Origin: a virus
Reading direction: 5' to 3' (one strand)
Length of the DNA: 53,351 nucleotides
UHGV virus genome: UHGV-0304279
Part shown: positions 6,398 through 53,351 of the stretch, piece by piece
Layout of the letters: each line of letters starts with the position of its first letter
Position numbering within the stretch: position 1 is the first letter of the stretch
The notes under the pieces: model-generated
Databases searched by the model: none
What the model saw: the letters and a program-made list of their open reading frames with translations, nothing else
What the model was told of the DNA's origin: nothing
Made by a program: the position numbers and the translations under genes

Positions 6398-6996
6398 TGG
6401 CTACTTTTGGCGCTTATTTACGCCTAGATAATGGCAATATTTTTGTAACGCCGGATTCTACCCCGATGTGCTTATATTCGCGGGTGGCATTAAATTCCAG
6501 CCAACAACAAACGATCGCTGTACCCAACGGTAAGCCTGTAATGGTATTCATCAAAAACACCGACGACACCGCTACTGGGCTTGCCTATCGCGCATCATCA
6601 TCTACGGTAGTGATCCCGCCTGGCAACGGGTATGCGTATATATTCAGCATCTTCCCGCCATCGCTGCCGAAATGGGGGATGGCTATCTGGAACGCTTCCG
6701 GGGAACTGGTACTGACCAACGAATCAAAAATATTAACCGACCTTGTTACAGTAGGCACGGCGGGATCGAGCGGGGGGATTTATATCGATCAAACATTATC
6801 AGGATCTTATGCGGTAGTGCCTCAGATATTGGGGGCCGCTGTAGGTATGGGTTCCGCAACAATATATACAGAATCATACTACAACGGCAGCAATACACGA
6901 ATTCGCGGGAAGATGGTTGGTAGCTTGCAACAGATTTACGGTTACATTAATCACGGGAACGCTATCACCGCCATTAAAACCGACGCCTATGATTAA
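6397..6996 (+). CDS. hypothetical protein, MATFG paralogue 2
   Basis: Start overlaps the stop of the previous gene (TAATG); N-terminal paralogy; glycine/serine-rich. Confidence 0.5.
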   Translation: MATFGAYLRLDNGNIFVTPDSTPMCLYSRVALNSSQQQTIAVPNGKPVMVFIKNTDDTATGLAYRASSSTVVIPPGNGYAYIFSIFPPSLPKWGMAIWNASGELVLTNESKILTDLVTVGTAGSSGGIYIDQTLSGSYAVVPQILGAAVGMGSATIYTESYYNGSNTRIRGKMVGSLQQIYGYINHGNAITAIKTDAYD

Positions 6997-7232
6997 TTCA
7001 GTTCCGGGCAATCCGTTTTCTTGAAGTGGTCAACGCTTACCCATTGGAAGTTAAACGGATACCCGGCCTTAACCATTTTATGACCGCCAACATCCGCGAC
7101 ACCGAAGACTGCAACCGCATATTCATTACCTCCAGCCTGATAAGTTGCCGTGCATTCACGTTTCGGCATATCAGCGCAACCAACCATACCAGCGACCATT
7201 GCAGCTATAGCGATATTTTTAAAGCCTTTCAT
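6993..7232 (-). CDS. small lipoprotein (moron), candidate superinfection-exclusion factor
   Basis: Minus-strand ORF inside the tail operon; signal peptide with lipobox-like VGC (MKGFKNIAIAAMVAGMVGCAD); RBS GGAGG upstream. Confidence 0.5.
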   Translation of the reverse strand: MKGFKNIAIAAMVAGMVGCADMPKRECTATYQAGGNEYAVAVFGVADVGGHKMVKAGYPFNFQWVSVDHFKKTDCPELN

Positions 7233-7307
7233 TGTCTTATCCTCCATTGTTCCGTCGGTTGTAGTATCCATAAACATCGTTTTCTCAACATTGATATAAA
7301 TCAATAA

Positions 7308-7362
7308 ATACATTTTGTATAAGCCAGAAATGTAACGCAGATCACAAAATGGTAAAATTACC
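7308..7362 (+). promoter_or_regulatory. restart promoter-like region upstream of the tail fibre gene
   Basis: Contains ATACATTTTGTATA and GATCACAAAATGG motif copies plus extended -10-like TGgTAAAAT at 7350-7358. Confidence 0.4.
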
Positions 7363-7391
7363 AGGTTAATTAACATAATGGAGTCATTGCG

Positions 7392-9170
7392 ATGATTTAC
7401 ACAACAGGCACGATAGCCGTTAGCGGAAACACAGTTACCGGAAAGGGGACTGAATTCAACGCCGCATTATCTCTGATCAGAGTTGGTTGCACTCTTATTG
7501 CCATTAGCGATCCGGTGCAAATTTTTTCAATCACAGAGGTAAAAAGCGCAACAAGTTTGTCGGTAACTCCGGCGGCAAGCCCGTCTATTCCGGCTGGGAC
7601 TAAATTTAGCATCCTGCTTTCAGATTCGATCTCTGTGGATGGTCTTGCTCAGGATGTCGCCGAAACACTACGTTACTATCAGGGCAAGGAATCAGAAATA
7701 GCTGACGCCGTAGAATTTTTTAGCGACAACAAGGATGTAATTTCAGCCTCAAAATTAGCGTCAGAATCGGCTACCACTGCAACTAACGCAGCAACAACAG
7801 CGACAACCGCCGCCAATTCAGCAAAGACATACAGAGACGAGGCCCACGAATACGCCAATCAGACGGCGCAGCCTTACGCGTATGTTTTGCAGCCGCTGCC
7901 GGACGTATGGATACCGTTTAATGATTCACTTGATATGCTCACTGGCTACGGCCCTGGCACTAAAAAAGTAACCATTGATGGTGAAGAAAAAACAATATCA
8001 TCAGATAAGGTTGTTTCTTTCTCACGCGCAAGCACTGCGACCTATATCAATAAATCCGGTGTACTCACCACTGCTGATATTGACGAGCCACGTTTCGAAC
8101 GCGAAGGATTATTAATCGAAGGTACGCGCACGAATTACCTGCGCAATTCTAACAATCCAGCATCGTGGCCTATTCATAGCCAATTAACTAAAGAAACGGG
8201 CGCAGACGAAAACGGGTTTAACTATGCGACAGTAACAGTAAGCGACGATCTTGTAGGGACGACAGGCGGTTACACTGTGCATGGCGTAGTTACAGCTGAT
8301 AGATTTGCATTAGCCGCTGGCGAGAGCCTCACACTTTCCGCTCTTTGCCGTGGTACTAATGCACGCTGCCGGGCGCGTATATCAATTATTGTTGATGGAA
8401 CTGATACATTTTCTGCTGACTCTTATTTAAATTTAAATACAGGTGAAGCGTTAGTGTCTGGTGATACTACGCTAATCACTACGAAATCAGAGCAACGTGG
8501 CGATTGGTATTACTTTGAAACAACATACACAGCAAAGGTTGATATAGATGCTGTTAATTGTTCTTTTTATATATCTAACCTGGTAAATGATAGCTTTTAT
8601 TCCGATTCTTCTATGGCATTAGCAACTCCGCAAATCGAGTTAGGTTCTTGCGCATCATCGTTTATTGTATCAGGTGACACTCCAACCACACGAGCAAGCG
8701 ACATGGTAAGCATACCTACTAAGAATAACCTGTTTAAGCCACCATTCAGTTTTTTACTTGAATTACACAAGGAATGGACAACAGCACCAAACGCAGCGCC
8801 TAGAGTATTTGACATTGCAAACGCAAACACAGGGCAAAGTGTTATAGCTGCTATTAACAGAGGTAGCAGTAAATTTTACGTTTCCTTGTCTAACAGTTCT
8901 GGTACTTACATCAATTCTGCCGCTGATTCCGTATTGCCAAGTAAAGCCATTGTTGGTGCGGTAGTTAAAGGTGATGATACTTTTCACGCGATCATGGATG
9001 GTGTGGCGGTTGCAGATACAACATGTTCCTACGGTGGAGTAACTCAAGACAAAAACATCAGATTCGGCGGCCAGGTAGCAGACGGAGCGCGTCACTTGTT
9101 CGGACATATAAGAAATTTTCGTATCTGGCACAAAGCATTAACTGATTCTCAATTAAGCGAAATTGTTTAA
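7392..9170 (+). CDS. side tail fibre protein with C-terminal lectin-like (LamG/ConA-like) domain
   Basis: 592 aa; Ala/Thr-rich fibre-like segment (SESATTATNAATTATTAANSAKTY); C-terminal domain resembles a concanavalin-like lectin fold. Confidence 0.7.
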   Translation: MIYTTGTIAVSGNTVTGKGTEFNAALSLIRVGCTLIAISDPVQIFSITEVKSATSLSVTPAASPSIPAGTKFSILLSDSISVDGLAQDVAETLRYYQGKESEIADAVEFFSDNKDVISASKLASESATTATNAATTATTAANSAKTYRDEAHEYANQTAQPYAYVLQPLPDVWIPFNDSLDMLTGYGPGTKKVTIDGEEKTISSDKVVSFSRASTATYINKSGVLTTADIDEPRFEREGLLIEGTRTNYLRNSNNPASWPIHSQLTKETGADENGFNYATVTVSDDLVGTTGGYTVHGVVTADRFALAAGESLTLSALCRGTNARCRARISIIVDGTDTFSADSYLNLNTGEALVSGDTTLITTKSEQRGDWYYFETTYTAKVDIDAVNCSFYISNLVNDSFYSDSSMALATPQIELGSCASSFIVSGDTPTTRASDMVSIPTKNNLFKPPFSFLLELHKEWTTAPNAAPRVFDIANANTGQSVIAAINRGSSKFYVSLSNSSGTYINSAADSVLPSKAIVGAVVKGDDTFHAIMDGVAVADTTCSYGGVTQDKNIRFGGQVADGARHLFGHIRNFRIWHKALTDSQLSEIV

Positions 9171-9180
9171 GGTGGTTAGC

Positions 9181-9447
9181 ATGAAAGACGTTAGCTTGCA
9201 ATTTACTGATAAACAGCAATACAACGACATTGTGATTAACAGCGGCTGGCTGGACGAAAATCAGCAAACCGTGTTTATTGATGATATTGGTTTTGTTCTT
9301 GTATTCGATGATCCAGAAAGCGAGACGCCTGTACTGATTGAGAAAAAAGGCTATTACGTCAACATGCGCATTACTGGTGACGATATTGATTTGTCGCCGC
9401 TGGAAAAATTCACCATTCCAGATCCCGGCGTCCGCGCATGGGCTTGA
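9181..9447 (+). CDS. hypothetical protein (possible fibre-associated)
   Basis: ORF coupled to the tail fibre gene; start and function uncertain. Confidence 0.35.
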   Translation: MKDVSLQFTDKQQYNDIVINSGWLDENQQTVFIDDIGFVLVFDDPESETPVLIEKKGYYVNMRITGDDIDLSPLEKFTIPDPGVRAWA

Positions 9448-16567: not shown

Positions 16568-17560
16568 TCAAAGAGCGCCAGCGCGGGTGTCGCGTAGCGT
16601 TTTTGGTTTTAGTAAGAAATCTAGTGTCGCAGTGAAGCCATTGCCGAAGTAAAAATCTGAGGCCGTATTTTTGAACGCTTCGAAGTAGCTGATAAAGCCT
16701 TTGATGCTTTTATCTTTCAGGTAGTCAGAGAACGCATAAATTTTACGTTCCAGATCCCGATCAAGTTCAGCAGGTGGTAACAGGCCATCAAACGTGCTGT
16801 TAAATGCTTCCACTACGTCGGCGGCGTTTACAGTAGCTGATAGCTTGCGCCATTGTTCAGCATCAGCCAGATACCCATCGAATTTAGTTACCCGGCAAAT
16901 GTTAATAGGCTTAGGCACTCCACCACGACTACGCCATTGAGTCAAAGCCCATTCAATTACTAATGTGATCTCATCCTCCGTATATGCCTTACGTGTTTTT
17001 GTTTCTGTCAGTAGTTCGATAAATGGTTTTGCGTCACGACATTTGCATCCTGCCTTGTCGTTGTAGAAGGCTAGGCAACGCAATGCTGCCAAATTAGCCG
17101 CCTGATCTTCTTCGCTAATAGGCCCGTCTTTTTCCAATACACGGAGTGTATTGTTTTTAATGTTCTCTTTACTGGTTATATATGACTGATTAGGGTGTCT
17201 CTCTGACACTACCCCCGGTGTCACAGTGACACTACCCTGGTGTCTCTCTGACACTACCCCCGGTGTCTCTCTGACACTACCCTGTAATGATGGTAAGACG
17301 ATTACATAGAAGTTACTTGTTTGCTCTTTTCCTCCTATTAGATATCGAGGTTGCTTAATCAATAACCCTTTCTCACAAAGAGCATCAATAGCCCGCATAG
17401 CTGTGCTTTTGCCTATTTCGCATTGCTTTGCTATGTGCTGGTAAGAAGGGTAACATTCGCCGTTATCGTTAGCGTTATCAGCCAACTTTAACAGCACAAG
17501 TTTGTGCATTGGGTTGCCGACTTCAGTATGAAAGACTTCAACCATTAGCCGCATACTCAT
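16568..17560 (-). CDS. replication initiator (lambda O-like) with internal origin
   Basis: N-terminal winged-helix segment (YPSYQHIAKQCEIGKSTAMRAIDALCEKGLL); iterons embedded in the coding sequence as in lambda ori; ATG 17560 with RBS GGAGG. Confidence 0.7.
   Translation of the reverse strand: MSMRLMVEVFHTEVGNPMHKLVLLKLADNANDNGECYPSYQHIAKQCEIGKSTAMRAIDALCEKGLLIKQPRYLIGGKEQTSNFYVIVLPSLQGSVRETPGVVSERHQGSVTVTPGVVSERHPNQSYITSKENIKNNTLRVLEKDGPISEEDQAANLAALRCLAFYNDKAGCKCRDAKPFIELLTETKTRKAYTEDEITLVIEWALTQWRSRGGVPKPINICRVTKFDGYLADAEQWRKLSATVNAADVVEAFNSTFDGLLPPAELDRDLERKIYAFSDYLKDKSIKGFISYFEAFKNTASDFYFGNGFTATLDFLLKPKTLRDTRAGAL
17194..17283 (+). repeat. origin of replication iterons (four copies of about 22 bp)
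   Basis: Four tandem copies of GGTGTC(TCTCT/ACAGT)GACACTACCC(C/T), each with inverted repeat GTGTC..GACAC, inside the initiator gene. Confidence 0.75.
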
Positions 17561-39414: not shown

Positions 39415-39492
39415 AAACCATCTCACAATCCCCCATAAGTTTTTCCATTTTTCGCGTAGCAACGCGTAAACATGTATTCAGGAGTAAACATT

Positions 39493-46889: not shown

Positions 46890-47567
46890 ATGATTCATGT
46901 TCGGACCGGGCAATTTGCGGCGGTGGTAGACGGTAGGCGGTATGTGTTTAATCCCTGCTTCGCCGCGATGGCAAAAATAGGCAGTGACAGAGAACTGGTC
47001 GAATATTTCGCAACAATCCACGGCGGCAAATATCCATCACGCTTGCCAGCAGACCCAGACTTACGCAATCGCATTCTGGCGCGGTGTTATGGTGAAATAG
47101 TGCAGACATCAATGCACATCCTGAAATGTTGCTCAGACGATGAAATAGGCCCGTTATTGGGCGAGTGTAGGTTTACTCCTTCGGGCAAGTTGCGACTAAA
47201 ACCAGGCTTGATGCCTACTGACGACGTTATCACGCTGGCGCAGCATTGCGTGTACCACGGCTTAATCGGTGATGGGCCGGAAGAAGATGCCGGAGAAATC
47301 CCGGAAGGGGAATATAAACCGACTTTTAACGTCCTTGAATTCGTCTATTCTGCCGTTGCTCACCTGGGCTTGTCAGAATCGGAAGCATGGAATATGACAA
47401 TGACCGGATATAGGGCCACTGTACGCGCTAAAACGCCGCCAGACGAAAGAAGCGAAAGAAGTAAGCCAAACGTTCACATAAATAAACGTGCTTATGACGA
47501 GCAAATGGAGGCCGCTAAAAAGGCGCTAAAAAGAATGGAAAATCGCAAGCAAGAAAAAGCCCGGTAG
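46890..47567 (+). CDS. tail assembly chaperone (gpG-like)
   Basis: Position immediately upstream of the tape measure region; acidic segment; Lys-rich C-terminus; no frameshift partner found. Confidence 0.55.
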   Translation: MIHVRTGQFAAVVDGRRYVFNPCFAAMAKIGSDRELVEYFATIHGGKYPSRLPADPDLRNRILARCYGEIVQTSMHILKCCSDDEIGPLLGECRFTPSGKLRLKPGLMPTDDVITLAQHCVYHGLIGDGPEEDAGEIPEGEYKPTFNVLEFVYSAVAHLGLSESEAWNMTMTGYRATVRAKTPPDERSERSKPNVHINKRAYDEQMEAAKKALKRMENRKQEKAR

Positions 47568-47582
47568 ATCCGGGCGTTTGTC

Positions 47583-47996
47583 TTATTTGATTCTAACAAT
47601 ATCAATAAAACCGTTACCTAAATCGACAATTGCGTGATTTTTTGCGCCAGCGCCGCCTTCATTAAAAATTCTTTCAGCGAAAGCAACTTTATTTGCTTTA
47701 CACTCGTTAGCTATCCTGTTTTTTATTTCGCTATTGTTTTCAAAGACTACGCTTACAGCAGCCTCGTTTACAAGGCCATAATTAAACCAACGAGCATAAA
47801 CTGGTTTACCTTCAAAATTTTTATCAATTGCCTTAAAAAGAATTGTGGGTGCGACTGGTTCTTTTTTGATCATGTCGTGATATGCGGCTACATGGTTTGC
47901 CACTTCTTCACAGTTAATGTTTATGGCCTCGTTAGCGTTCGCGTTAAATGCCAGTGCAGCAATCACAGCAAGTACCATTTTTGCTAACCGTTTCAT
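47583..47996 (-). CDS. secreted protein (moron) with N-terminal signal peptide
   Basis: MKRLAKMVLAVIAALAFNANA signal peptide; antisense to the tail operon; bidirectional hairpin at 47555-47582. Confidence 0.55.
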   Translation of the reverse strand: MKRLAKMVLAVIAALAFNANANEAININCEEVANHVAAYHDMIKKEPVAPTILFKAIDKNFEGKPVYARWFNYGLVNEAAVSVVFENNSEIKNRIANECKANKVAFAERIFNEGGAGAKNHAIVDLGNGFIDIVRIK

Positions 47997-48247
47997 AATT
48001 AACCCCTGTAATTATTCTGATTTGCTAAATGCTTCCTTTAACTTAGTTATACACGCATATTGTTTATTTTTTAAGTGCTTTTAACATTTCTTCGATAAGG
48101 TCCGCATAGCGTTCATATTCGTTGGGACGGTAGTTTACGTTTCTCATTTTCTTATCCTCTTTCACTTCCTCCGGGACATCCGGCCTTCCTGCATCTCTTC
48201 TATCTTTCTCTACATCATCTATACAAAACGGTATCGTTAAAATAAAG

Positions 48248-48288
48248 ACATTTTGTATAAAATAGATACATAGATCACATTTTGCATG
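48248..48288 (+). promoter_or_regulatory. restart promoter-like region upstream of the tape measure gene
   Basis: ACATTTTGTATAA with -10-like TATAAA, then GATCACATTTTGCATG; RBS GAGG before ATG 48299. Confidence 0.4.
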
Positions 48289-48298
48289 AGGTTAAATC

Positions 48299-50638
48299 AT
48301 GGCTACCAGTGTAGGTACAATTTATTACGAAGTTGACGCAAAAACAGGACAACTTCTTGTAGCACAACGACAGGCAGACCAAGCCTTTGACCGTATAGAG
48401 CGCGGTGCTAAACAGGCCGATCGCCAGGTAAACACACTGAAAACATCAATCAAAGCACTGACCAGGGTTATCCATCTGCTAATTGCTGCCGAGGCCGTTA
48501 GACAGTTTATGGAAATGGCAGAGCAGGCCAAAATGCTACGCGTCAAAATCAAAATGCTGACAGGCAACGCGGAATCTGCCGGGCGGGTTTTTGATGGTCT
48601 GAAAGAAATATCCAGGGAGACGGGGCAGAGCCTGAAAGATACTGGCGAATTATGGCAAGGCCTGGCTATCTCACTAAAAAACACCTCCGCTACGGAAGGG
48701 CAATTGCTTAACCTGGTTGGCACCATTCAGAAGATGGGCGCGTTAGGGGGCGCGTCAGCAGAGCAAATGTCAAACTCTATGCGCCAGTTCCGACAGTCTA
48801 TTGACGGCGGCGTACTTCGCGCAGAAGAATTCAACAGCTTGCTTGAAAATACGCCGACCATCGTACAAACAATGGCCCGCAAGATGGGATTATCAATGGG
48901 CCAGTTCCGCGCCGAAATGCTGGACGGCAAGATCACGGCAGAGAGGATGGTTAACGCAATCCAGGCGGCTACGCAGGAAACAAACGAGCAGTTCGCACAG
49001 TTGCCGCGCACATCCGGCATGGCTATCAATGAACTAAAAGTCGAGGTAATGGGTCTGGTGGAACAACTGGACGATCTTTTCGGTGTATCAGATGGCGTAG
49101 TCTCAGCTATCGACTTGATCACAAAAGGAGTTAATGGGCTAGGTGAGGGCGCTAAATTCGCTAAAACCTGCTTTGATACGCTCAAAACGGCTGGTAGCGA
49201 ATTCATCGACATGTTTGATGATGTGGCTGTGAAGGCTGGCGAGGTGGCAGAGAAGATCATCGCAATGGTGACGCCAATCAAGGCGCTAATGGATGGCTAT
49301 AAATGGATGAAAGAGATTGTCGATGAACGCAAGGAAGAACTAAACAGCAACAACGAGAAAAAATTTGGCCCTACCATCGGTAAATTCATGACGTTTAAAA
49401 ACGACATTGAAAAGGCGACCGCCGCTTATGACGAGCTTATGCAGAAACAGGCAGAAGCCAACGACGGAGCTATTACCGGATTCGATAAGCCAGTTGATAA
49501 GCCGAAAAAACAGAAAAAAGAGAAGAAATCGGAAGCTGATCGGCTTGGAGACAAGGGCATAAGCGTTTCTGATCAGTACAACAAAGACGCCGCCGCCATG
49601 CGCAAAGCGTTAGAGAACGGCAAGGCCATTGATGCTGCGTTCGCCCAGGGTAAAATCACACTCCTTGAGTACCGCGCCGCGCAAAAAGGGATCGGCAAGG
49701 AACTGAAAGAAGAATTAGCGCAGATCCCGGTAGATGAATTGCGTGATAAATGGTCGCAAATAGTTAGCCCAATGGACCAGCTAAAAGGCGAAGTTGACCC
49801 TATCCAGCAGGCGCAAAATGAATGGGCCGTCCGTAAGCAAATGCTTATCGACCTGGGCGCTACAGAAGCACAACAGAAACAGGAATTATTAGCCTATGAG
49901 CAGCAGATCCGCGATCTGAAGTGGGAACAGTGGCAGGCGCAAAGCCAGACAAACGGCCTGATCGGTGATTGCGTTAATGGCCTTAAAGGTGGCATGAGCA
50001 ATGCGCTTGTTGGCCTGCTTAACGGTACTCAATCATTGAGCGATGTTTTTGCTAACTTAGGCAGCAATATACTTGGGAATATCGGTAACAGACTTTCGGA
50101 CATAGCTGCCAACTGGATAGCAGATCAAATCATGATGGAGACACAAAGCAAAGCCACGCAGGCCAGCACAACGGCAAGCGCGGTTGCCGCTCAGGGAAGC
50201 ATTGCGGCGGCGGCGGCCCCGGCGGCGGCAGCGACAGCGGCATCAACTGGCGGTAGCTGGGCGGCGGCTGGCTCGGCGGCGCTTACTGCGATCATGTCGC
50301 TGGCAACATCCATTTTCGGCGGCGGGCGCTTTAATGGTGGTAGCGTAATTGGTGGCAATATGTACCGCGTCGGGGAACATAACAGGCCGGAGCTATTCCA
50401 GACGTCTAACGGCAACCAATACATGATCCCCGGCGAGAATGGCAGGGTTATCCCGGGGCGTGATATTGGCGGCGGCGGCGGTATCAGTATGCCTGTTTAC
50501 ATCGACATTCAAACCACAAACGGATTTAGTGACGAAGACAGCCGCAGACTTGAACAGACAATGGAACGTGTAGCCATGAAAATGATAACAAGGGAATCGC
50601 AAAGACCTGGCGGGATGTTGCAACCGCGCCGCAAATAA
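48299..50638 (+). CDS. tail tape measure protein
   Basis: 779 aa, helical N-terminal two thirds, Gly/Ala-rich C-terminal region; position. Confidence 0.85.
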   Translation: MATSVGTIYYEVDAKTGQLLVAQRQADQAFDRIERGAKQADRQVNTLKTSIKALTRVIHLLIAAEAVRQFMEMAEQAKMLRVKIKMLTGNAESAGRVFDGLKEISRETGQSLKDTGELWQGLAISLKNTSATEGQLLNLVGTIQKMGALGGASAEQMSNSMRQFRQSIDGGVLRAEEFNSLLENTPTIVQTMARKMGLSMGQFRAEMLDGKITAERMVNAIQAATQETNEQFAQLPRTSGMAINELKVEVMGLVEQLDDLFGVSDGVVSAIDLITKGVNGLGEGAKFAKTCFDTLKTAGSEFIDMFDDVAVKAGEVAEKIIAMVTPIKALMDGYKWMKEIVDERKEELNSNNEKKFGPTIGKFMTFKNDIEKATAAYDELMQKQAEANDGAITGFDKPVDKPKKQKKEKKSEADRLGDKGISVSDQYNKDAAAMRKALENGKAIDAAFAQGKITLLEYRAAQKGIGKELKEELAQIPVDELRDKWSQIVSPMDQLKGEVDPIQQAQNEWAVRKQMLIDLGATEAQQKQELLAYEQQIRDLKWEQWQAQSQTNGLIGDCVNGLKGGMSNALVGLLNGTQSLSDVFANLGSNILGNIGNRLSDIAANWIADQIMMETQSKATQASTTASAVAAQGSIAAAAAPAAAATAASTGGSWAAAGSAALTAIMSLATSIFGGGRFNGGSVIGGNMYRVGEHNRPELFQTSNGNQYMIPGENGRVIPGRDIGGGGGISMPVYIDIQTTNGFSDEDSRRLEQTMERVAMKMITRESQRPGGMLQPRRK

Positions 50639-50644
50639 CACTAA

Positions 50645-50670
50645 GGCCGCTATAAGCGGCCTTTATTTTA
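50645..50670 (+). terminator. bidirectional terminator between the tape measure gene and the antisense cassette
   Basis: GGCCGC-tataa-GCGGCC followed by TTTATTTT. Confidence 0.65.
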
Positions 50671-50955
50671 CATGGTAAGGATATAAATTAAACAGCACAG
50701 GAATGCGGGCGCGGCGAAGTCGCAAACGCTAGCCATATTCCATGCTTTTGGTAAAAAACCACCATACCACGGCATTCTTTCTCGTTTCCCTCCGCAAAAT
50801 TCCGCTATGTAACGATATTCAGCCTGTGTGTGTTCCCGTGCAAAAAAGAATGTACATCCAATCAGGCCGCCAGTGAGATAATCACCAGTAAGCAGGCCGA
50901 TAACAACCTGTATAGTCGCCGCAGCCAGTGCGTGACCAATAACGGTTAAATCCAT
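50668..50955 (-). CDS. small membrane protein (moron)
   Basis: Two or three hydrophobic segments; RBS GGGAGG. Confidence 0.5.
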   Translation of the reverse strand: MDLTVIGHALAAATIQVVIGLLTGDYLTGGLIGCTFFFAREHTQAEYRYIAEFCGGKRERMPWYGGFLPKAWNMASVCDFAAPAFLCCLIYILTM

Positions 50956-50957
50956 CG

Positions 50958-51143
50958 TTAATCCTCCCGATCGTTCTCAAATGTGCCATCTACAAATTTT
51001 TGCAGCCCGGCGATAAGTTGTGTTGCCTGCGATTTTTCAATTACTATGGTTTCAGTCCCCATAAGTTCGGTTATCCACAGCCGACCATCCTCATCAAGAT
51101 CTAACCTAACTCCGTAACATAACTCTGTTTCGTCAATAATCAT
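50958..51143 (-). CDS. hypothetical acidic protein (moron)
   Basis: 61 aa ORF coupled to the downstream membrane protein gene. Confidence 0.4.
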   Translation of the reverse strand: MIIDETELCYGVRLDLDEDGRLWITELMGTETIVIEKSQATQLIAGLQKFVDGTFENDRED

Positions 51144-51253
51144 TTTTCATCCTATAATCTTCCGTTACGTGCGACGTAACCCCCTGCCGAACATCACTAA
51201 CCAGATGTTCCAGATCTCCCGCTAGGTATATTTCTCCTCCTCCATATTCCACC

Positions 51254-51508
51254 TCACTTATGAGCGCCTTTCACTCCGCAATGACGGTTGTATTCCAGGT
51301 GATCGATAATTAACCAAATATTCAAATCTTCACTGAACAGCCGCCAGTCAGGATTGATATCGAATTTAAAGCCATAACCATCACGTAATTTTTTGGGGCG
51401 GGCTTCTTTTTTCAGGAAGGCGTTAAGCAACTTCTTGCCTTTCTTGATTACCCGTTCCTGTGCATTCTTTTGTGCTTTCAGGTTTTTTTCGATAGTTACC
51501 AGTTTCAT
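51254..51508 (-). CDS. hypothetical basic protein (moron), possible toxin-like partner
   Basis: 84 aa, Lys-rich N-terminus; RBS GGGGTGAG; lies 17 nt downstream of a 51 aa ORF. Confidence 0.45.
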   Translation of the reverse strand: MKLVTIEKNLKAQKNAQERVIKKGKKLLNAFLKKEARPKKLRDGYGFKFDINPDWRLFSEDLNIWLIIDHLEYNRHCGVKGAHK

Positions 51509-51525
51509 AACTCACCCCATCGTCC

Positions 51526-51681
51526 TTAGTTAAGCGCCCTCAGGAAGAAATCCCGGTATTCATCATCCTTCGCGTTCATCATGAATTGACCGTATTTGAA
51601 TGCGTCGTCGAAACCCTTAACAATTGCTACTTCCACTTGCTCGAATGCGTTGTTTAGCATCACTACTACATAGCTACTCAT
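51526..51681 (-). CDS. hypothetical small protein (51 aa), first gene of the antisense cassette
   Basis: MSSYVVVMLNNAFEQVEVAIVKGFDDAFKYGQFMMNAKDDEYRDFFLRALN; RBS GTGAGG. Confidence 0.4.
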   Translation of the reverse strand: MSSYVVVMLNNAFEQVEVAIVKGFDDAFKYGQFMMNAKDDEYRDFFLRALN

Positions 51682-51754
51682 TTTTGGGCCTCACTTGCTG
51701 GTACCGCTTTTCTTCTTGCTTCCTGTATACGGCTTGTTGCTTCATGTGTGAATA

Positions 51755-51837
51755 CATATTGTAAACTAGCTATAATTCTTGTGACGAATATCTCATTTTT
51801 CGCGTAGAAGCGCGTAAAGATATATACAAAATGTAAC
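51755..51837 (+). promoter_or_regulatory. restart promoter-like region upstream of the gpM-like gene
   Basis: ATACATATTGTAAAC (51755-51769), perfect -10 TATAAT (51771-51776), ATATACAAAATGTAAC (51822-51837). Confidence 0.45.
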
Positions 51838-51851
51838 TTACAGGAGGGGGT

Positions 51852-52205
51852 ATGCCGGAAGTGTTCAGATGGACACCACAGAGAAGCTACAGCGTAAACA
51901 GTGAGCCTAACGTGTCCGTTATCAAGCTGGGCGATGGCTATGAACAGCGCCAGACAAAAGGGATTAATCCACTACTTGACAGCTATACGCTGGTCTTTAA
52001 AGGTACGAGCGCCGGATGCGGTGACGCCGGAAACGTGGCGCTCCAGGTTGACGCATTTTTAAGAGCACGTTGCGCGGTCGAGGCGTTTTACTGGACGCCA
52101 TCTACAGACGGAGTGAAAAGGCTTTTTGTATGCCGAAAGTGGAGCATGGCGAAAGACGGCCCGGTATGCACTCTGAATGCAACGTTTGAACAAGTTATCA
52201 ATTAA
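51852..52205 (+). CDS. minor tail protein M (lambda gpM-like)
   Basis: Resembles lambda gpM end to end (FRW.P, GDGY.QR, FLWTP, C.KWS, F.AEFEQV.N); RBS AGGAGGGGG. Confidence 0.8.
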   Translation: MPEVFRWTPQRSYSVNSEPNVSVIKLGDGYEQRQTKGINPLLDSYTLVFKGTSAGCGDAGNVALQVDAFLRARCAVEAFYWTPSTDGVKRLFVCRKWSMAKDGPVCTLNATFEQVIN

Positions 52206-52218
52206 TGGAGAAGTCAAT

Positions 52219-52404
52219 ATGTATGCTATTTGTGTAGTTGACCGCACGGGCGCTTTTACATTATTTGACGACTATGAAATCAAAGATCTTACCGTAAAGG
52301 CTGACAATGGCGAGATCTGGTATCTTCATGACGTTGGTGACGGGTATGTTGGGTGCAGGTCGAGAGAGGGAAGGGAAGTTTTATTTTTGGTTGATAGCGT
52401 ATAA
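52219..52404 (+). CDS. hypothetical protein
   Basis: RBS GGAGAAG. Confidence 0.4.
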   Translation: MYAICVVDRTGAFTLFDDYEIKDLTVKADNGEIWYLHDVGDGYVGCRSREGREVLFLVDSV

Positions 52405-52504
52405 ACACGACCCCGCGCGAAGCGGGGTTTATAGTGTCGATAGCAGAATGCATAACAATCCAATAATGATAATAATCATCTCCAGAACGTAATGTTCGCA
52501 CATC

Positions 52505-52753
52505 TCATAACGCCCCCTTCAAATATGTCAATCCCTTATCAGTGACGAATGAATGGTTTACCTGGTTTTCATCCGTCATGATGATGAATAACTTTTCCTG
52601 TAGGTATTTCGCTTTTGGGTACAGCGTTAAACAGACCTGGTACAAAACCCCGCGCTCAATCAGCAAATCAATAAATTCGTGCTCATGATAACCGATAAGG
52701 CGGGCGGCCTGTTTCAACGTGTACACATAGCCACCGTGATTGCGCCGCGTCAT
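52505..52753 (-). CDS. hypothetical protein (moron; possible HTH)
   Basis: RBS AAGGTGG. Confidence 0.45.
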   Translation of the reverse strand: MTRRNHGGYVYTLKQAARLIGYHEHEFIDLLIERGVLYQVCLTLYPKAKYLQEKLFIIMTDENQVNHSFVTDKGLTYLKGAL

Positions 52754-52762
52754 ATTGCCACC

Positions 52763-53113
52763 TTATTTGCCGAACGCTCCCAGGTTGTCGATACAGAAAT
52801 CTTTTGCCGCTTTTTCGTATTCACGTTTTGCTTGCGGATCATCTGCCGGGAAACCTTTTGCGTGTATTTCACCAGGACAAGCCTGATCCATAGAGTTGGC
52901 AAAATTAACATTGAAGTTAACATTAATATCTTTCGGGTTCATATCTTCCACCTCATCTGGTATTTGCACCGGAACAACCACAAAATCACGCGCACTAGAC
53001 CAACAACGCAGCAATTCACGACCATCATCACGCGCGGCGTTGTATGTATCGAATAACCCTATGCGCTCCCATTCGCATTTATCAGTGAACACCTCTAATC
53101 TGTATTTTTGCAT
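52763..53113 (-). CDS. hypothetical protein (moron)
   Basis: ATG 53113 with RBS AAGGGTAG. Confidence 0.4.
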   Translation of the reverse strand: MQKYRLEVFTDKCEWERIGLFDTYNAARDDGRELLRCWSSARDFVVVPVQIPDEVEDMNPKDINVNFNVNFANSMDQACPGEIHAKGFPADDPQAKREYEKAAKDFCIDNLGAFGK

Positions 53114-53117
53114 AATG

Positions 53118-53297
53118 CTACCCTTCATTTATTGGCCTGATCCGGTAGCCGATAATGCGGCTATCTTTCTCCATAAGTTCAAAAGCCGTATCTATAGCAT
53201 CATCAGGATTATCGAAATCAGACGTTATGTTTTCATTTCCAGTCATGAAAACCGTAAGCCTCCATAACTTACCGCCGCCATTGCTGCATCGCGCCAT
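53118..53297 (-). CDS. hypothetical protein (moron)
   Basis: ATG 53297 with RBS GGAGGT. Confidence 0.4.
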   Translation of the reverse strand: MARCSNGGGKLWRLTVFMTGNENITSDFDNPDDAIDTAFELMEKDSRIIGYRIRPINEG

Positions 53298-53351
53298 TTT
53301 GTTTACCTCCATTCGTTTGAGTAAAATATACATATTGTAAAAACCGCGATC
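53293..53351 (+). promoter_or_regulatory. motif-containing region at the window end, continuous with positions 1-56 upstream of the gpL-like gene
   Basis: GCCATTTTGTTTAC and ATATACATATTGTAAAA here; CCATTTTGGTATG and GATCACAAAATT at 4-43. Confidence 0.35.

Follow-up and report, generated by a model that had tools for sequence, protein, structure and literature searches.

Morons are defined as extra DNA lying between conserved phage genes, with a deviating G+C content and a promoter and terminator of its own (PMC3594210). A described example is gene 15 of phage HK97, which is situated between the tail chaperone and tape measure genes (PMC3594210). A similar arrangement is present in the virus genome UHGV-0304279, a stretch of 53,351 nucleotides (nt) that is referred to here in its entirety as the window and that constitutes a complete mEp021-like (mEpimmI) temperate siphophage of Escherichia coli. 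In this phage a cassette of four small genes, encoding the proteins g51, g84, g61 and g95, is inserted between the tape measure gene and gene M. As with HK97 gene 15, the cassette interrupts the tail genes, deviates in G+C, has its own terminator and encodes a small membrane protein. Unlike HK97 gene 15, it runs antisense to its surroundings, comprises several genes and is built from a fixed head and a variable tail.

The mEpimmI phages are a Nus-dependent, non-lambdoid group (PMC11893012), and the cassette is not discussed in the paper that describes them. The DNA of the window is 85–88% identical to that of the Escherichia phages MagusPhagus, mEp010, mEp044 and mEp021. Related DNA was found in 32 of 5426 complete E. 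coli genomes and in every case represents a chromosomal prophage. The analysis of the cassette provides a better-founded annotation for four ‘hypothetical’ genes of this gut-prevalent coliphage group.

A probable moron operon with a constant head and a variable tail

The head of the cassette, which consists of a conserved leader, usually g51, and g84, is constant across relatives, and it is the tail that varies. The cassettes of close relatives hold between 2 and 5 genes, with breakpoints at gene boundaries. The tail is empty in E. coli 2017C-4173W12 and WCHEC025970, where only two genes are present, and contains a single gene in the three-gene cassette of STEC308. In many contigs the tail is made up of a 30-residue open reading frame (ORF) called p30, a gene for a 58-residue protein and a g61-like gene; in mEp021 it comprises a zinc-ribbon protein and another gene, in one contig it includes an HNH endonuclease, and mEp010 also carries other cargo than the window. 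The four-gene layout of the window is shared with the prophage PAR (L001), and in the closest relatives that have this layout it is decaying, at g84 in PAR and at g95 in the contig L016 (IMG/VR 2541047752_000007).

Homology to relatives with other cargo breaks at about 51150–51250, in the spacer between g84 and g61, and with mEp021 it stops precisely at the g61 ribosome-binding site, g61 being the first cargo gene. The G+C content of the cassette is 0.42–0.48, compared with 0.50–0.63 for the end of the tape measure gene and 0.49–0.52 for M. The cassette is classed as a moron because its variable gene content, lower G+C and terminator fit the published definition (PMC3594210). As such it is genuine but unremarkable, and adds one more member to kinds of system that are already known.

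The initial annotation had described four minus-strand ORFs with good ribosome-binding sites that form a compact operon, and this description was borne out in the form of a separately terminated accessory cassette whose ORFs lie where they had been placed (Table 1). Each of the four starts is preceded at a distance of 2–7 nt by a Shine–Dalgarno-like sequence (GTGAGG, GGGGTGAG, AGGA and GGGAGGA), and the computed isoelectric points (pI), charges and hydropathy agree with the basic, acidic and membrane character that had been assigned to the proteins of 84, 61 and 95 residues. On sequence evidence all four ORFs are genuine coding genes, because g51 and g84 have low ratios of nonsynonymous to synonymous substitution (dN/dS) and g61 and g95 have diverged homologues.

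Table 1. Features of the cassette and its flanks, in window coordinates
Feature	Position	Strand	Remarks
Tape measure gene	48299-50638	+	Upstream flank; so named in relatives
Bidirectional intrinsic terminator common to the tape measure gene and the cassette	50643-50663	both strands	Scan and folding
g95, 95-residue membrane protein (phrog_1443), independent cargo gene	50668-50955	-	
g61, 61-residue very acidic protein, independent cargo gene	50958-51143	-	
Palindrome GTTACGT-cgc-ACGTAAC, chance feature in the 3' end of the p30 remnant	51164-51180	no strand	
p30 remnant, 30-residue ORF broken by TAG at codon 8	51165-51245	-	
g84, 84-residue basic RelE/ParE-superfamily protein (Pfam ParE_like), constant gene of the cassette	51254-51508	-	
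g51, 51-residue acidic protein, usual but dispensable partner of g84	51526-51681	-	
Candidate sigma-70 promoter of the cassette (TCGTCA / GTCACA ... TACAAT)	51758-51787	-	9/12 consensus match
Conserved 25-nt motif TTTACGCG-NNNC-TACGCGAAAAATG (small hairpin) between the cassette and M	51794-51818	no strand	
M gene (minor tail protein)	51852-52205	+	Downstream flank; Pfam Phage_min_tail, E 2e-28

It is on balance probable that the region as a whole is a modular accessory operon, antisense to the late tail operon and closed by a strong bidirectional terminator, in which a g51–g84 head is followed by a swappable tail. The promoter-proximal head would then be the fixed part, and the promoter-distal tail would be open to exchange, being represented in the window by the decayed 30-residue ORF, g61 and g95. 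Its expression would take place in the prophage state, or else in early infection, ahead of the late transcription that crosses it. The g84 protein may inhibit growth or manipulate the host by acting on the translation machinery or gyrase, with g51 as its usual binding or modulating partner, and g95 would be an inner-membrane protein of the conversion or superinfection-exclusion type.

Some observations weigh against this interpretation. The promoter of the cassette is a weak consensus match, and the region contains 4 such sites where 3.6 are expected from shuffled sequence. Moreover, the -10 element, which is TACAAT in the window, reads TACAAA in most relatives. The promoter is considered a candidate only, because matches are no more frequent than in shuffles and because of this difference in the -10 element. 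In addition, g95 has no match to a known exclusion or defence family (Pfam, NCBIfam and PADLOC, E up to 1) and belongs only to phrog_1443, which has no assigned function. Finally, the main role of the g84 family could be in lytic infection rather than in lysogens, since g84 homologues sit among the small genes of virulent phages.

The g84 protein and its neighbours

Type II toxin–antitoxin (TA) operons such as parDE, relBE and paaA2-parE2 consist of a small acidic upstream gene and a basic downstream gene with a toxin fold, tightly spaced within one operon, and the head of the cassette has the same build. The g84 protein is strongly basic (pI 9.95, charge +9.8) and matches the Pfam family PF24732 (ParE_like, ‘ParE-like toxin domain’) with 42 bits against a gathering cut-off of 24.4. 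Residues 19–75 align to profile positions 2–67 of 67, so that 66 of the 67 positions are covered. Close homologues all carry the same precomputed PF24732 domain, and the NCBI pipeline PGAP already names them ‘ParE family toxin-like protein’.

An AlphaFold model built from a 19-sequence alignment is confident, with a predicted local distance difference test (pLDDT) value of 88.6, and has the topology beta-beta-alpha-beta-beta-beta-alpha. The model has the small alpha/beta fold of the RelE/ParE superfamily, in which a three-stranded antiparallel sheet packs on N-terminal helices, and resembles the structures of HigB, YafQ, RelE, YoeB and ParE. A Foldseek comparison with viral models matches it to proteins of the jumbo phages fHe-Yen9-04 and RaK2 that bear the name ‘ParE-like toxin domain’. 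The g84 protein is thus shown to be a phage-specific member of the RelE/ParE toxin superfamily, a membership at the level of the superfamily that rests on the Pfam match and the predicted fold. The initial annotation had recognised no family in the cassette and had proposed remote homology searches and structure prediction; for g84 these provided one.

Residues K40, L41, G46, R56 and N74 are invariant even in homologues of 24–31% identity, and W65, H70 and Y73 are nearly invariant. RelE-type RNases carry an Arg ... His/Arg ... Tyr pattern, to which R56, H70, Y73 and N74 bear a possible likeness. The predicted N-terminus of g84, a beta-hairpin and one helix, is nearer to RelE, HigB and YafQ than to the two-helix hairpin of ParE. 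Alignment of the g84 family with hhalign against single sequences (E. coli RelE, YafQ and RK2 ParE) was not significant, and no subfamily was assigned. Sequence searches of solved structures in the PDB, with the single sequence and with a profile, likewise returned nothing meaningful. The family is catalogued, but a full-text literature search for the accession PF24732 found no paper on it and keyword searches for phage-encoded ParE and RelE proteins gave nothing useful; within the literature searched by accession no member appears to have been studied experimentally.

The upstream partner, g51, is acidic (pI 4.5) and ends 17 nt before g84 on the same strand. It gave no match in Pfam, NCBIfam or PADLOC, its one family being a small PHROG without an assigned function. 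In the predicted structure (pLDDT 87.6) it forms a compact beta-beta-alpha-beta unit, and no antitoxin class (ribbon-helix-helix, helix-turn-helix, Phd/YefM or AbrB), DNA-binding family or antitoxin-type fold was found for it. Both genes are under purifying selection, with dN/dS of 0.03–0.17 between diverged relatives whose synonymous sites are near saturation. Among 46 related contigs g84 is intact in 45, and g51 is present together with g84 in 44. Decayed forms of g84 do occur in some prophages, as truncations in P0098 and P0099 and as a 1-nt deletion in PAR, where the resulting frameshift leaves a piece of 53 residues that alone is called by PGAP.

These features invite the view that g51 and g84 form a classical type II TA system of the ParDE or RelBE kind, serving addiction or abortive infection, in which g51 neutralises g84 by binding and in which prophage loss or phage attack frees the toxin. 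The toxin-like fold of g84, the opposite charges and close spacing of the two gene products, their joint conservation and the decay of g84 in a few prophages would all be in keeping with it, and g51 is indeed the adjacent, co-oriented small partner that type II systems possess. In such systems, however, the partner belongs to a recognisable antitoxin class and the toxin is not kept in its absence. In the living isolate E. coli UMNK88 (NC_017641.1 1659386-1659640, L064), and in the IMG/VR contigs L023 and L032, g51 is cleanly missing and the conserved leader runs directly into an intact 84-residue gene. The sequences of L023 and L032 are not the same, which indicates that the arrangement has been stable and has persisted. 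The neighbours of distant g84 homologues are also non-homologous, and a search of all four cassette proteins against the PADLOC-DB defence models gave no match at E up to 1, which leaves the earlier suggestion of abortive-infection or exclusion modules without a match among them.

A classical TA pair is not supported, because g51 lacks an antitoxin fold and g84 persists without it, and this explanation is considered rather unlikely. The distribution of the genes shows that no antitoxin role of g51 can be indispensable, and the head, though laid out like a TA system, does not appear to be a classical addiction module. Of the TA resemblance proposed initially for the small-plus-basic pair, the layout and the toxin-like fold therefore stand, whereas obligate pairing is contradicted by UMNK88 and a second, diverged contig. 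Natural genomes can dispense with one half of a pair that looks like a textbook TA system, which cautions against assigning such labels from gene layout only.

A second candidate partner is p30, an ORF overlooked in the initial annotation, which directly follows g84 and reads MDDDKFTWREIWNIWQVMFARSYIARNGRL in relatives where it is intact. In the window only a remnant is left, which translates as MEEEKYT*REIWNIWLVMFGRGLRRT*. Across the 46 related contigs p30 is intact in 24, absent in 19 and interrupted by a stop in 2. With the toxin gene first, as in higBA, p30 could be the protein that neutralises g84, either by itself or in redundancy with g51. Both g51-less lineages keep an intact p30 directly after g84, the ribosome-binding site of p30 overlaps the g84 stop codon, and wherever g84 is intact in the 46 surveyed contigs at least one of g51 and p30 accompanies it. 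On account of these two distributions redundant neutralisation of g84 by g51 and p30 is conceivable. Nevertheless, all 19 contigs that lack p30 have an intact g84, p30 is broken in the window, and in phages of 140 kb its homologue lies 2.5 kb from that of g84, which makes a neutralising p30 a poor candidate and very unlikely.

An exhaustive HMMER search of 1.84 billion representatives with g84 gave only 8 matches, for which reason the family is taken to be small or fast-evolving at the sequence level, and a scan of species-representative bacterial genomes for g84 relatives found none. Distant homologues, detected with HMMER, tblastn and structure comparison, occur in arrays of small unannotated genes in virulent phages. 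The carriers are T7-like phages, jumbo phages, Sortsne-like siphophages, Klebsiella phages phiKp_21 and RaK2, Yersinia phage fHe-Yen9-04 and contigs of 140 kb. In one contig the homologue is three genes upstream of a homologue of T7 gene 0.4. The genes upstream of the distant homologues have no homology to g51, nor to each other across phage groups.

The 140-kb contigs (loci L061, L063 and L006) carry consecutive homologues of a 33-residue ORF of the window (48064-48165), of p30 and of a 56–58-residue cargo ORF that is common in mEp021-like cassettes, with the g84 homologue 2.5 kb beyond these three small genes. Because of these homologues, the small genes appear to belong to a pool that is common to temperate phages and large, presumably virulent ones.

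It has to be asked, then, whether g84 and the neighbouring small ORFs are early lytic factors for host takeover or anti-defence, common with virulent phages, silent in the prophage and in need of no neutralisation. The arrays of Sortsne, phiKp_21, RaK2 and fHe-Yen9-04, the proximity to gene 0.4, the shared small genes of the 140-kb contigs and the tolerance of g84 without g51 would all fit. In contrast, the cassette is antisense, separately terminated and low in G+C, as befits morons expressed from a prophage (PMC3594210), and the g95 family is almost entirely confined to temperate phages and prophages in the searches run. A search near the cassette for operator-like repeats of the type present at 17194–17278 (described below) found none, and there is consequently no sign of repressor control of the cassette. 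A purely lytic function is on these grounds thought to be fairly improbable.

A broader proposal, which is put forward only tentatively, is that PF24732 proteins form a phage-specific RelE/ParE branch that works without a dedicated antitoxin in T7-like, jumbo, rV5-like, Sortsne-like and mEp021-like phages. Such proteins might be effectors against the translation machinery, gyrase or competing phages, with g51 and p30 tuning rather than neutralising them in temperate phages. The unstudied ParE_like family, common to temperate and virulent phages, is one lead to come from the cassette.

The distal cargo genes g61 and g95

In the tail of the cassette, the g61 stop codon precedes the g95 start by 2 nt. 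The g61 protein is very acidic (pI 4.05, charge -10.5) and has a weak match to phrog_13627. Homologues of 47–53% identity close the cassette of mEp010, mEp044 and mEp515 and of many IMG/VR contigs without g95. The g95 protein is hydrophobic, with a grand average of hydropathy of +0.61 and hydrophobic N- and C-terminal segments in its hydropathy profile, between which lies a conserved charged loop, AREHTQAEYR...MPW(W/Y)GGF. It matches phrog_1443 with an E-value of 2.6e-36.

Homologues of g95 are found in lambdoid, P2-like, P22-like and mEp021-like phages and prophages, besides two partial matches in Aeromonas phages. The protein of phage 21 (CPT_21_24, 53% identical) is a ‘putative membrane protein’ annotated with 2 transmembrane domains, and in phage 21 and many other lambdoid phages it follows the side tail fibre (Stf) gene and a gene for an acidic 92-residue protein. 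In a P2-like Enterobacter prophage (61% identity) the homologue comes directly after the tail fibre gene, and in a P22-like prophage (53% identity) directly after the tailspike gene. Unlike these phrog_1443 proteins, which are encoded beside receptor-binding-protein genes, g95 of the window lies in the cassette, bounded by the tape measure gene and M, away from the tail fibre gene at 7392-9170.

The initial annotation had seen in the acidic protein and the membrane protein the layout of a two-gene module for TA or abortive infection. The genes are adjacent, they occur together in the window, in 5 IMG/VR contigs and in PAR, and the g95 homologue of phage 21 likewise comes after a small acidic protein. 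That 92-residue protein, however, has no similarity to g61; relatives of g61 occur without g95 in about 17 contigs; relatives of g95 in lambdoid, P2-like and P22-like phages have no g61 beside them; and in L016, the closest relative, g95 is frameshifted and g61 is intact. Such a module is already largely refuted by the distribution of the two genes and is regarded as highly improbable. As far as their occurrence in genomes can show, g61 and g95 are unrelated, separately mobile cargo genes and not a functional pair.

The position after receptor-binding-protein genes is a common home of conversion and exclusion genes in temperate phages. The g95 protein may accordingly be placed among inner-membrane proteins of the lysogenic-conversion or superinfection-exclusion type, a role that is proposed solely because of this position, the membrane character and the strongly conserved loop. 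Like the superinfection-exclusion proteins HK97 gp15, P22 SieA and T4 Imm, g95 is a small predicted inner-membrane protein encoded outside the essential genes, in its case by a temperate phage. A small membrane protein family that travels with receptor-binding-protein genes, and that may be an exclusion or conversion factor, is the other lead from the cassette; neither this nor the ParE_like family is surprising for phage biology and the finding is mostly ordinary.

A tie between g95 and one type of tail fibre was considered but found no support. The C-terminal 183 residues of the Stf of the window are 67% identical to those of phage 21 Stf, and this domain is found in 205 phage records, including T5-like phages, rV5-like phages and Dhillonvirus. 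No specific link between g95 and Stf is apparent, because most of these records are of virulent phages that lack g95 and because unrelated receptor-binding proteins, of P2-like and P22-like phages, can also precede g95. The side tail fibre gene of the window has a downstream neighbour that overlaps it, an ORF of 94 residues (9163-9447) with no family match.

Terminator, repeated motifs and other antisense islands

The terminator that ends the cassette had initially been drawn at 50645–50670 and was confirmed, with its stem located slightly differently (Table 1). It has a 9-bp stem and was scored as a terminator on both strands; the folding energy is -15 kcal/mol, with z-scores of -4.4 and -4.2 relative to shuffled sequence. 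A terminator is annotated at the same site in mEp021 and mEp010. On the plus strand, inside g61, there is a further terminator-like hairpin with a T-run at 51009–51027, which lies on the late-gene strand and, if functional, would affect late transcripts that run across the cassette. A scan of 47400-53351 against Rfam gave no RNA family matches.

The inverted repeat noted between the second and third genes is present but appears to be a chance feature within the p30 remnant and not a regulatory element. It is non-palindromic in the aligned relatives mEp021, mEp010 and E. coli prophages, its hairpin is no better than shuffled sequence (z -0.8), and perfect inverted repeats with 7-bp arms and spacers of 0–10 are abundant in the window, with 63 occurrences against 31–47 in shuffles. 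A function as operator or terminator is discounted on these three counts. In the same area a GTG-initiated ORF of 39 residues at 51133-51252 was rejected as a gene, because a 1-nt deletion in PAR brings a stop into its frame and because it is the p30 frame that is conserved in relatives.

The 25-nt motif between the cassette and M, read on the minus strand, occurs exactly twice in the window, where none is expected by chance. The second copy, at 39446–39470, is positioned between the large terminase and portal genes, and each copy precedes a plus-strand late gene by a few tens of nt. In 7 aligned relatives the copy beside the cassette is almost unchanged.

The cassette is one of several antisense islands of lower G+C that interrupt the tail operon, the others being found on the minus strand at 47583–48165, 52505–53333 and 6993–7376. 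The first of these lies between the tail chaperone and tape measure genes and contains a 137-residue ORF and the 33-residue ORF. The second extends from behind M to the end of the window, in a place where relatives have an island between M and L, and includes an 82-residue KilAC/ANT-like protein (Pfam ANT, E 4.5e-6). The third precedes the side tail fibre gene. A motif, AATAAAnACATTTTGTATAA, marks the promoter-side edge of every antisense island among the tail genes, with copies at 7303–7322, 48241–48260 and 53323–53342 and an inverted copy near 51821–51836, and may serve the islands as a common promoter or regulatory element. Elsewhere in the window, at 17194–17278, there are four tandem copies of a 17-bp palindromic sequence, GGTGTC-N4-TGACACT, about 22 bp apart, which look like operators or iterons.

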